This document shows, piece after piece, positions 27,588 to 28,283 of a DNA stretch of 39,763 nucleotides (positions are counted from its first letter, which is position 1; every line of letters begins with the position of its first letter). The stretch is taken from positions 1-39,763 of the forward strand of contig CAZPXI010000001.1 in assembly GCA_964590715.1 (NCBI GenBank), given 5' to 3'. Under the pieces are notes generated by a model that ran no database searches, was not told the DNA's origin, and saw only the letters and a list, made by a program, of their open reading frames with translations. The position numbers were made by a program, and so were the translations under genes. Origin of the DNA: an uncultured Desulfobulbus sp. (GTDB taxonomy: Bacteria > Desulfobacterota > Desulfobulbia > Desulfobulbales > Desulfobulbaceae).

Positions 27588-27854
27588 TCAGGTAACAGAC
27601 TGCCCCAGTCCGGCATTACGCAGGGTTGCTTCATCCGGGCCATGGCCGGTGCAGCAACCGGCAAGCTTGCCGTTGATTGCCACCGCCGGGACGGAGTGGA
27701 CATTGAGTGCCTTTGCCCTGGTCGCCCCTTTCGTGTCGTGCATGTCGACCACCTCAACTTCACAGGAAGGACAGGCCAGATCGTTTACCCTTGCCGCTGT
27801 TTCTTCACAGAGCGGGCAACCAGCACTGAAGACTTCTATTTTTCTGGTTTTCAT
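27588..27854 (-). CDS. Thioredoxin-fold (glutaredoxin-like) small redox protein
   Basis: 88 aa. KIEVFSAGCPLCEE (CxxC after a beta-strand), a second CPSC pair, and HSVPAVAINGKL (cis-Pro loop region). Starts 9 nt after the upstream MerC-like gene stop. Confidence 0.8.
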   Translation of the reverse strand: MKTRKIEVFSAGCPLCEETAARVNDLACPSCEVEVVDMHDTKGATRAKALNVHSVPAVAINGKLAGCCTGHGPDEATLRNAGLGQSVT

Positions 27855-27863
27855 GTCAATCCC

Positions 27864-28283
27864 TCACTTGTTGTGGTTGGTTGTATACGGCACATCCAAA
27901 GGCTGGCCCGGGGTGTCGGCGGTATCAGTTCGAGGCCAGGCATTCCATATCGATGCCGTTATCAAAAGTATGGCTCCGCCGTACACCAGCTGGTTTGAGT
28001 TGAGATAAAACTTACCGGCAAGGATTGCAGCGGATGAAAAAATCCCTGTAAGCAGTGGTCCGTACCCTCGTCTGCTGCTTGCCCGGTAGCCAAAAGTGAC
28101 AAGCGTGATCAGAAGAAAGAACAGGGTCAGCGGCAAAAGGTACTCATCACCTATTAAAAAATTCAGCCCGACCGAGCTTAACAGGCCCGCATAGGCAGGC
28201 CAGCATGCCGGTCAGGTCAGTCTCGGCAGTAAGGCAATCCCCACGCCGGGAACTGCGCCTGCTATTTTTTTCGAAAACGACAT
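27864..28283 (-). CDS. MerC-family membrane protein with in-frame TGA (candidate selenocysteine) at codon 24
   Basis: ATG at 28283. Encodes MSFSKKIAGAVPGVGIALLPRLT-TGA(28214-28212)-PACWPAYAGLLSSVGLNFLIGDEYLLPLTLFF and onward. UPACWPAYAGLLSSVGLNFL aligns with Tn21 MerC CAACFPALASFGAAIGLGFL as I recall it. The track shows only the 90-aa remnant from TTG 28136. Confidence 0.6.

Follow-up and report, generated by a model that had tools for sequence, protein, structure and literature searches.

A candidate selenocysteine codon in a MerC-family membrane protein gene paired with a thioredoxin-fold gene

Can a TGA codon that interrupts the reading frame of a small membrane protein gene be a selenocysteine (Sec) codon, and what would a Sec residue do in such a protein? 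We addressed this question for a locus on the minus strand of a 39,763-nt stretch of DNA (contig CAZPXI010000001.1, positions 1 to 39,763; hereafter the window), where a gene for a MerC-family membrane protein (27864-28283) contains one in-frame TGA (28214-28212) and is followed by a gene for a small thioredoxin-fold protein (27588-27854). The original prediction, made from the letters alone, had proposed a UxxC selenoprotein candidate of the MerC family in an operon with a thioredoxin-fold protein, and this part of it stands; its statement that no merR gene is nearby, and its choice of the upper stem of a hairpin as the Sec insertion signal, do not. As set out below, the sequence comparisons make it very probable that the TGA codes for Sec, and we consider it likely that this codon belongs to a MerC-family inner-membrane protein working within a soft-metal handling module.

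The TGA codon and its counterparts in homologues

Translation of 27864-28283 on the minus strand yields MSFSKKIAGAVPGVGIALLPRLT*PACWPAYAGLLSSVGLNFL..., with a single internal TGA at 28214-28212. The frame was read in the same way in the original prediction: an ATG at 28283 opens 23 codons (MSFSKKIAGAVPGVGIALLPRLT) ahead of the TGA, past which the same frame remains open for 115 further codons up to the stop at 27866-27864. With Sec included, the gene has 139 codons, and the U-P-A-C motif occupies residues 24-27. A Shine-Dalgarno (SD) sequence, GAGG at 28294-28291, precedes the ATG of the full-length gene (28281-28294 for the two together, minus strand). The candidate Sec codon (28212-28214, minus strand) is followed by C, giving a UGAC context.

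Homologous loci were collected in two scans. The top 80 loci were retrieved from a one-genome-per-species collection, in which five species had TGA at the corresponding codon and the rest TGT or TGC, and the top 80 loci were retrieved from metagenome contigs, among which four had TGA and the rest TGT or TGC. Both scans together with the window give 155 loci, ten with TGA and 145 with TGT or TGC (hereafter Sec-type and Cys-type loci), although the scans disfavored TGA forms, as a Cys codon was demanded by one of the two search patterns. The TGA falls on the first Cys of the family motif LLPKLxCPxCWPAYAGLLSSVGLGFL, and both Cys of this motif were invariant in alignments of 22, 109 and 105 sequences. 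Cys-containing orthologues at the TGA column, for which the original prediction had recommended a search, are therefore represented by 145 loci, and nine TGA-containing relatives, down to about 50% identity, were found in addition to the window.

The genome loci with the same TGA (L001, L005, L006, L009 and L045) all come from metagenome-assembled genomes (MAGs) of Desulfobacterota, namely Desulfobulbus sp. HyVt-436, three MAGs labeled 'Deltaproteobacteria bacterium' and one Desulfobacterales MAG; the metagenome contigs are L084, L085, L087 and L126. In all ten Sec-type sequences the frames are intact on both sides of the TGA and the upstream codons are conserved, and each of the six Sec-type genome loci that we examined, window included, has an SD sequence with an ATG at a distance of 23-25 codons upstream of the TGA. 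The DNA of the closest public orthologue (P0001, from the Desulfobulbus sp. MAG of L001) shares with the window both the in-frame TGA and the 23 codons that precede it. Over these 23 codons the window and L001 differ by eight synonymous and two conservative changes. The conservation of this segment that the original prediction called for is thus seen, mostly in the form of synonymous differences, and the upstream codons appear to be under coding constraint. Neighbour-joining analysis of 153 family members grouped all ten TGA sequences into one exclusive clade, with internal distances of up to about 0.4. This combination of exclusivity and deep divergence suggests a single Cys-to-Sec change that has been kept, and is unlike a nonsense mutation in a pseudogene. 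The clade is further marked by R in place of K before the motif, by N in place of G after it, and by loss of a C-terminal CxxC that most Cys forms carry.

As had been anticipated, standard gene calling truncates the protein: the P0001 orthologue (L001 3650-3979) is annotated as a 109-aa product. In another assembly, the call at the locus (L003 985-1134) is a 49-aa open reading frame (ORF) in the wrong frame. The RNase II-family protein of the window shares a cluster, at an identity of 90% or more, with proteins of Desulfobulbaceae and Desulfobulbus MAGs, which is consistent with the window deriving from a Desulfobulbaceae relative, a taxon where Sec use is common. The Desulfobacterota are among the phyla richest in selenoproteins (PMC13188914, section 10).

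The stem-loop at the UGA

The original prediction had placed a stable hairpin, GGCCUGC-CUAU-GCGGGCC, at 28201-28184, and we recovered it at that position, 10 nt past the UGA and with CUAU as the apical loop. This hairpin is the upper part of an extended stem-loop resembling a selenocysteine insertion sequence (SECIS; 28167-28216, minus strand), supported by its minimum free energy (MFE), its z-score and the comparison of Sec-type with Cys-type genes. Its lower helix pairs CC-UGA-CCGGC with GC-UCGGUCGG, so that the UGA itself lies inside the helix. When 71 nt were folded, the stem-loop at 28216-28167 had an MFE of -32.3 kcal/mol and a z-score of -4.2, and none of 200 dinucleotide shuffles was as stable. 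Published criteria for bacterial SECIS (bSECIS) elements require a distance of 16-37 nt between the UGA and the apical loop and an MFE of -7.5 or lower (PMC13188914, Fig. 2 legend). The apical loop of the window element begins about 17 nt after the UGA, and the element lies within both limits.

We compared predicted structure in 60 nt starting at position -6 relative to the TGA between the TGA genes (n = 10) and the Cys genes (n = 145), the latter serving as a control for structure driven by coding, since the peptide that follows the TGA or Cys codon is nearly identical in both forms. The mean MFE was -30.5 kcal/mol in the TGA genes and -21.3 kcal/mol in the Cys genes, and the mean z-scores were -3.3 and -0.46, respectively, while GC content was 0.65 in both groups. 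The difference in z was significant (p = 5e-7, Mann-Whitney test), although the ten sequences are related by descent and the p-value overstates their independence. In the nearest Cys-type relatives, z ranged from -1.2 to +1.5.

The two parts of the stem-loop behaved differently in this comparison. The upper stem was paired at 86% in the TGA genes and at 78% in the Cys genes, whereas the lower helix was paired at 90% in the former and at only 51% in the latter. The 3' strand of the lower helix reads UCGGUCGG in 10/10 TGA genes and in 4/145 Cys genes; among the 36 Cys genes that encode the same S-V-G peptide, four have it. Synonymous sites are therefore constrained only where the TGA is present. 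Because the upper 7-bp stem is also largely paired in the Cys genes, it is largely a by-product of coding for W-P-A-Y-A-G, and the lower helix, including the UGA, is the Sec-specific part. Accordingly, the earlier proposal of a hairpin that follows the UGA and is specific to TGA genes holds for the extended structure, which is common to the ten TGA genes and so conserved in related genomes, and fails for the upper stem that had been singled out. Likewise, the spacing expected of a bacterial SECIS is present, and the consensus apical G is not.

We also observed a terminator-like hairpin, AGCUCGGUCGGGCU followed by GAAUUUUUUA, within the coding region (28165-28178, minus strand). It overlaps the 3' strand of the lower helix and is probably a chance occurrence. 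The possibility that it acts as an attenuator was rejected, as the T-run is not conserved in two of the Sec-type loci (L006 and L045).

A module of MerC-like protein, thioredoxin-fold partner and MerR-type regulator

With U read as C, the product of the TGA-bearing gene matches Pfam MerC (PF03203) with 37.7 bits against a gathering cut-off of 27.6. The match places aa 13-114 on profile positions 4-106 of 108 and covers both flanks of the TGA. The NCBIfam MerC equivalog models NF033784 and PRK13755 gave 34.6 and 33.9 bits against cut-offs of 140 and 170 bits, respectively. A score that passes the Pfam threshold and falls far under those of the equivalogs indicates a MerC-family member that is not an orthologue of the Tn21 transporter. 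The product had no match to Pfam MerT (PF02411) at E ≤ 1, and none of the NCBIfam selenoprotein models matched it. A search of a protein collection returned 593 homologues, mostly of 130-145 aa and 50-60% identical.

The original prediction had aligned the motif with Tn21 MerC. We repeated this comparison by hhalign with an actual merC sequence, which matches an annotated plasmid merC at 100% identity, and obtained the same alignment (probability 96.5%, E 7e-10): TCPACWPAY (U as C) aligns on GCAACFPAL, and the TGA column falls on the first Cys of CAAC, so that Sec would replace this residue. MerC of Tn21/R100, an inner-membrane transporter of organomercurials and Hg(II) (PF03203), and the window protein are homologous, small, multi-helix membrane proteins. 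In both, a vicinal pair opens the first hydrophobic helix, with U-P-A-C on C-A-A-C residue for residue, and a F/WPA...G.GF.L stretch follows the pair. Most Cys-type relatives, though not the Sec clade, also share with MerC a second Cys pair in the C-terminal tail. The window protein differs from Tn21 MerC in having Sec as the first residue of the pair and in lacking, like the rest of its clade, the C-terminal pair. It also differs in genomic setting, as its gene is chromosomal, in anaerobic Desulfobacterota, and its operon has a thioredoxin-fold protein as partner and contains no merA, merP or merT.

The partner gene (27588-27854, minus strand) encodes 88 aa with CPLC, CPSC and a vicinal CC. 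As originally described, it begins 9 nt past the MerC-like stop; its SD sequence overlaps that stop. The thioredoxin fold is confirmed by a match to Pfam Thioredoxin_3 (37.8 bits, cut-off 24.8), and the protein scores under the cut-off of NCBIfam TIGR00412 (29.9 against 62 bits). Across 135 loci the CxxC, the cis-Pro (Pro56) and the CC pair of the partner are invariant. A Thioredoxin_3 gene lies downstream of the MerC-like gene in 10/10 Sec-type and 130/145 Cys-type loci, and in 13 Cys-type loci Thioredoxin_3 is fused to the MerC-like C-terminus. In one Sec-type contig (L126, 2240-2857) no stop separates the MerC-like frame from the Thioredoxin_3 frame that continues it, suggesting a natural fusion.

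In 63/145 Cys-type loci a further small thioredoxin-like domain is found fused at the N-terminus of the MerC-like protein, and it belongs to the DF family of (seleno)proteins (NF049942; 76 bits, cut-off 70). This domain was seen at the N-termini of P0013, P0019, P0037, P0044 and P0103, and as a separate gene just after Thioredoxin_3 in two Sec-type loci (L006, about 3715-3954; L045, about 3723-3962). Its placement connects the MerC-like module with an orphan (seleno)protein family that has been reported only recently. The first report of this family as a selenoprotein concerned a Desulfobulbales genome, with 'hypothetical protein DF' of Desulfosediminicola flagellatus (PMC12013277). The DF protein is thus a small thioredoxin-like protein with a known Sec form that is tied to the module. 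It is a partner of the window protein and not the same protein; it is absent from the window, and the copies found here are Cys forms.

On the upstream side, the original prediction had stated that no merA, merR or merP is nearby. This holds for merA and merP, neither of which is adjacent, and does not hold for merR. Directly upstream of the MerC-like gene, at about 28308-28397 (about 90 bp, minus strand), alignment with the intact 132-aa merR of L001 revealed a remnant of a MerR-family regulator gene that comprises only codons ~32-62; it has lost both the start of the helix-turn-helix and the metal-binding C-terminus. A phmmer search detected the remnant peptide, YRIYPPENLQRLLFITRSKDLGFSL. 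Further upstream, at 28421-28452 (minus strand), the sequence reads as a MerR-type promoter/operator, with TTGACC at 28452-28447 (the -35 hexamer, from a scan), a CCCTGAA-N6-TTCAGGG dyad at 28448-28429 and TATACT at 28426-28421, the spacer being 19-20 nt. The same element is conserved in L001, the Desulfobulbus MAG, upstream of the intact MerR-family gene, which lies there between era and the MerC-like gene.

Counting the window remnant, merR is found directly upstream on the same strand in 9/10 Sec-type loci and in 95/145 Cys-type loci. It is intact in six Sec-type orthologous loci that are more distant from the window (L001, L006, L045, L085, L087 and L126), and L009 has no merR upstream. 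Damage has occurred independently in three closely related lineages: besides the remnant in the window, merR is frameshifted in L005 (2531-2988) and truncated before its last Cys in L084 (1585-2043). The MerC-like and thioredoxin-fold genes are intact in all loci with a damaged merR. The intact MerRs have three Cys, one at the start of the dimerisation helix and two in a C-x8-C, and the best match of the L006 MerR is Hg-MerR TIGR02051 (143 bits, just under the cut-off of 150.85), with CueR next. The conserved upstream regulator therefore looks like a metal sensor, and its conservation weakens the earlier argument that a lack of mer genes speaks against a metal-related role.

Over the 155 loci, the combination of merR, MerC-like and thioredoxin-fold genes is a conserved module, which we found in Acidobacteriota, Myxococcota, Planctomycetota, Gammaproteobacteria and Desulfobacterota. 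Other metal-related neighbours are sporadic and include CDF, P-type ATPase, RND, MerA-like, ArsC and ArsR genes. A MerA-like gene occurs within 3 kb in only about 5/155 loci, and neither merP nor merT was seen among the neighbours of the 155 loci.

In the mer system, the CAAC pair of MerC binds Hg(II) and passes it inward. By analogy, handling of a soft metal, similar to Hg(II), is a plausible function of the module. Translation of the window gene would begin at the ATG at 28283, and the stem-loop at 28216-28167, which starts at the UGA itself, would recruit SelB with Sec-tRNA(Sec). The product would bear a selenol-thiol pair, U-P-A-C, at the start of the first membrane helix, where its relatives have a near-invariant C-P-x-C. 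This pair is probably on the cytoplasmic side, since thioredoxin-fold domains without signal sequences are fused at both termini in relatives and the loop between helices 2 and 3, RASSRRGYG, is positive. Like the CAAC of Tn21 MerC, the membrane U/CxxC site would capture a thiophilic metal and, on the cytoplasmic side, transfer it by ligand exchange to the Cys-rich thioredoxin-fold partner; this partner, small and with an invariant CxxC and the vicinal CC, would be made by translational coupling to the MerC-like gene. Sec in place of Cys would be expected to lower the pKa and to tighten the binding of soft metals. In relatives, the pair of genes would be transcribed from the MerR-type promoter under control of the three-Cys MerR-family sensor. 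With this regulator decayed in the window genome, the genes are probably expressed at a low level and without regulation.

Outside this locus, a c-di-GMP-I-GGC riboswitch (RF03167; 75.8 bits, E 2e-16) was found at 268-344 on the plus strand of the window, just upstream of a cluster of about 26 kb on the same strand (982-27370). The cluster encodes a phage-sheath-like protein, a GPD baseplate hub, a DUF6519/beta-helix protein and an eCIS_core protein, and looks like an extracellular contractile injection system. Given the position of the riboswitch directly upstream, this system may be under the control of cyclic di-GMP (c-di-GMP).

Alternative explanations, known selenoproteins and significance

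Several observations weigh against a Sec-containing, metal-handling MerC-type protein. With regard to Sec, a tRNA scan of the 39.8-kb window detected no tRNA, tRNA-Sec included, no sel gene was detected among the window ORFs that were covered by Pfam scans, and Rfam gave no match to a SECIS or other family at the site. RNAalifold and pair counts over the ten TGA sequences, in which the peptide is nearly invariant, revealed no compensatory double change at any pair, with 88% of cells paired. The apical loop, CUAU (CUAC in L006 and L045), has no G in its first two positions, where the published bSECIS consensus asks for one (rule ii; PMC13188914, section 5), although a subset of bSECIS elements fails this rule (same section). 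A loop starting with G is formed only in a conformer with the top two pairs opened. With regard to function, the window protein, at 34.6 bits, stays far under the 140 bits that the NCBIfam MerC equivalog demands, and merA, merP and merT are not adjacent, so that a role with mercury is an analogy. The AlphaFold model of a Cys homologue (P0006, from an alignment of 105 sequences) is too poor to fix the topology (predicted local distance difference test score 58, predicted template modeling score 0.33). The operon of the window's sub-lineage may also be decaying, as the damage to merR could indicate.

An alternative that accepts the Sec residue is that the protein is a membrane thiol-disulfide relay, similar to VKOR/DsbB or CcdA/DsbD, and not a metal transporter. 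Such a relay would make sense of the invariant CxxC and cis-Pro of the partner, of the fusion of thioredoxin-fold domains to either end of the membrane protein, and of an operon without merA, merP and merT; moreover, redox proteins with UxxC or CxxU make up the majority of the known bacterial selenoproteins (PMC13188914, section 7). It fits less well with the type of regulator that is conserved upstream, a three-Cys MerR of the metal-sensor type with Hg-MerR and CueR as best matches, and with the homology to MerC, in which the motif falls on the metal-binding CAAC. In addition, the neighbours, where present, are metal-resistance genes, and the vicinal CC of the partner is a common soft-metal ligand, as in MerT and MerA. 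We therefore regard a redox relay as unlikely and favor the handling of a soft metal.

If, on the other hand, the TGA were a true stop, the gene would be a pseudogene or would give a truncated product from a downstream start, such as the 90-aa ORF that begins with TTG at 28136 or the 109-aa form in GenBank, and the operon would be decaying together with merR. The reduction of merR to about 90 bp in the window, its damage in two close relatives and the fact that public annotation has truncated products only are all what one would expect from such decay. Yet merR is intact in 6/9 orthologous loci, and the same TGA has been kept in ten sequences of one clade that have diverged to about 50% identity, with intact frames on both sides in all ten and an SD sequence and ATG upstream in the six genome loci examined. 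The upstream codons change mostly synonymously, and a truncated product would be without the first helix and the most conserved motif of the family. Termination at this TGA is in our view quite improbable. Finally, insertion of Trp, Cys or Gly at the UGA by near-cognate read-through or a reassigned codon is exceedingly improbable: UGA followed by C is a weak termination context, but what the UGA replaces is a conserved Cys of the redox or metal type, in the classic Cys/Sec pattern, plain leakiness leaves the TGA-specific RNA hairpin unexplained, and TGA is itself the stop codon of the MerC-like gene in 5/6 Sec-type genome loci examined (window included) and of the thioredoxin-fold gene in the window. 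A reassigned genetic code was rejected, since genes of the same loci also terminate in TGA.

The preferred reading, a Sec codon in a MerC-family protein of a soft-metal module, has relatives among the known selenoproteins. Of the 119 families in an inventory from 2026, some are MerT-type and SO_0444-type transporters and none is MerC/PF03203 (PMC13188914, Table 1), and Haft and Gwadz named only SO_0444 and a small MerT-related set as efflux-type selenoprotein families previously validated for the NCBI pipeline (bioRxiv 10.1101/2022.07.06.499078). Literature searches on MerC with selenocysteine, on PF03203 and on mercuric transport selenoproteins returned the MerT-type family only. The MerT-type selenoproteins (PF02411), which are among the few membrane transporters previously listed as selenoproteins, are likewise membrane proteins of the mercury-transporter type in which one Cys of a membrane metal-binding pair is Sec. 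They differ in belonging to another Pfam family, in their motif (C/SxxU or CU, in contrast to the UxxC described here) and in their gene neighbourhood. The SO_0444 Cu/Zn efflux transporters (NF033936, U-S-C) are also a metal-related membrane family in which the first Cys of the motif is occasionally Sec, and they have been described alongside small thioredoxin-like proteins (bioRxiv 10.1101/2022.07.06.499078). Their fold and family are unrelated to those of the window protein, which has no NCBIfam match of this kind, and their motif is UxC where that of the window protein is UxxC. Within the literature searched, the MerC-family protein is therefore a solid candidate for an unlisted selenoprotein family, of a well-known kind, namely Cys/Sec exchange in a CxxC.

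We consider the significance of these results to be moderate, as they offer a candidate selenoprotein family and a better-defined module of metal type and no new mechanism. MerC-family proteins would join the catalogue of bacterial selenoproteins, as a rare case of Sec within a membrane-embedded metal-binding pair. Current pipelines cut short or overlook the MerC-like Sec gene, which a profile tolerating U at CPxC would remedy. A more far-reaching idea, to which we would give little credence at present, is that in a clade of anaerobic Desulfobacterota that includes Desulfobulbaceae the Sec-armed MerC-type protein and its Cys-rich thioredoxin-fold acceptor form a dedicated importer that takes up Hg(II) or another soft metal with high affinity. 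If this were so, the selenol could, in sulfidic sediments, be a competitor of sulfide and thiol ligands, and the module could be a route of Hg(II) entry into cells without merA, possibly feeding methylation by HgcAB, which also has Sec forms. The analysis also defines a widespread, uncharacterised merR / MerC-like / thioredoxin-fold module, and the existence of natural Cys and Sec versions of it invites comparison of thiol and selenol chemistry in soft-metal handling.

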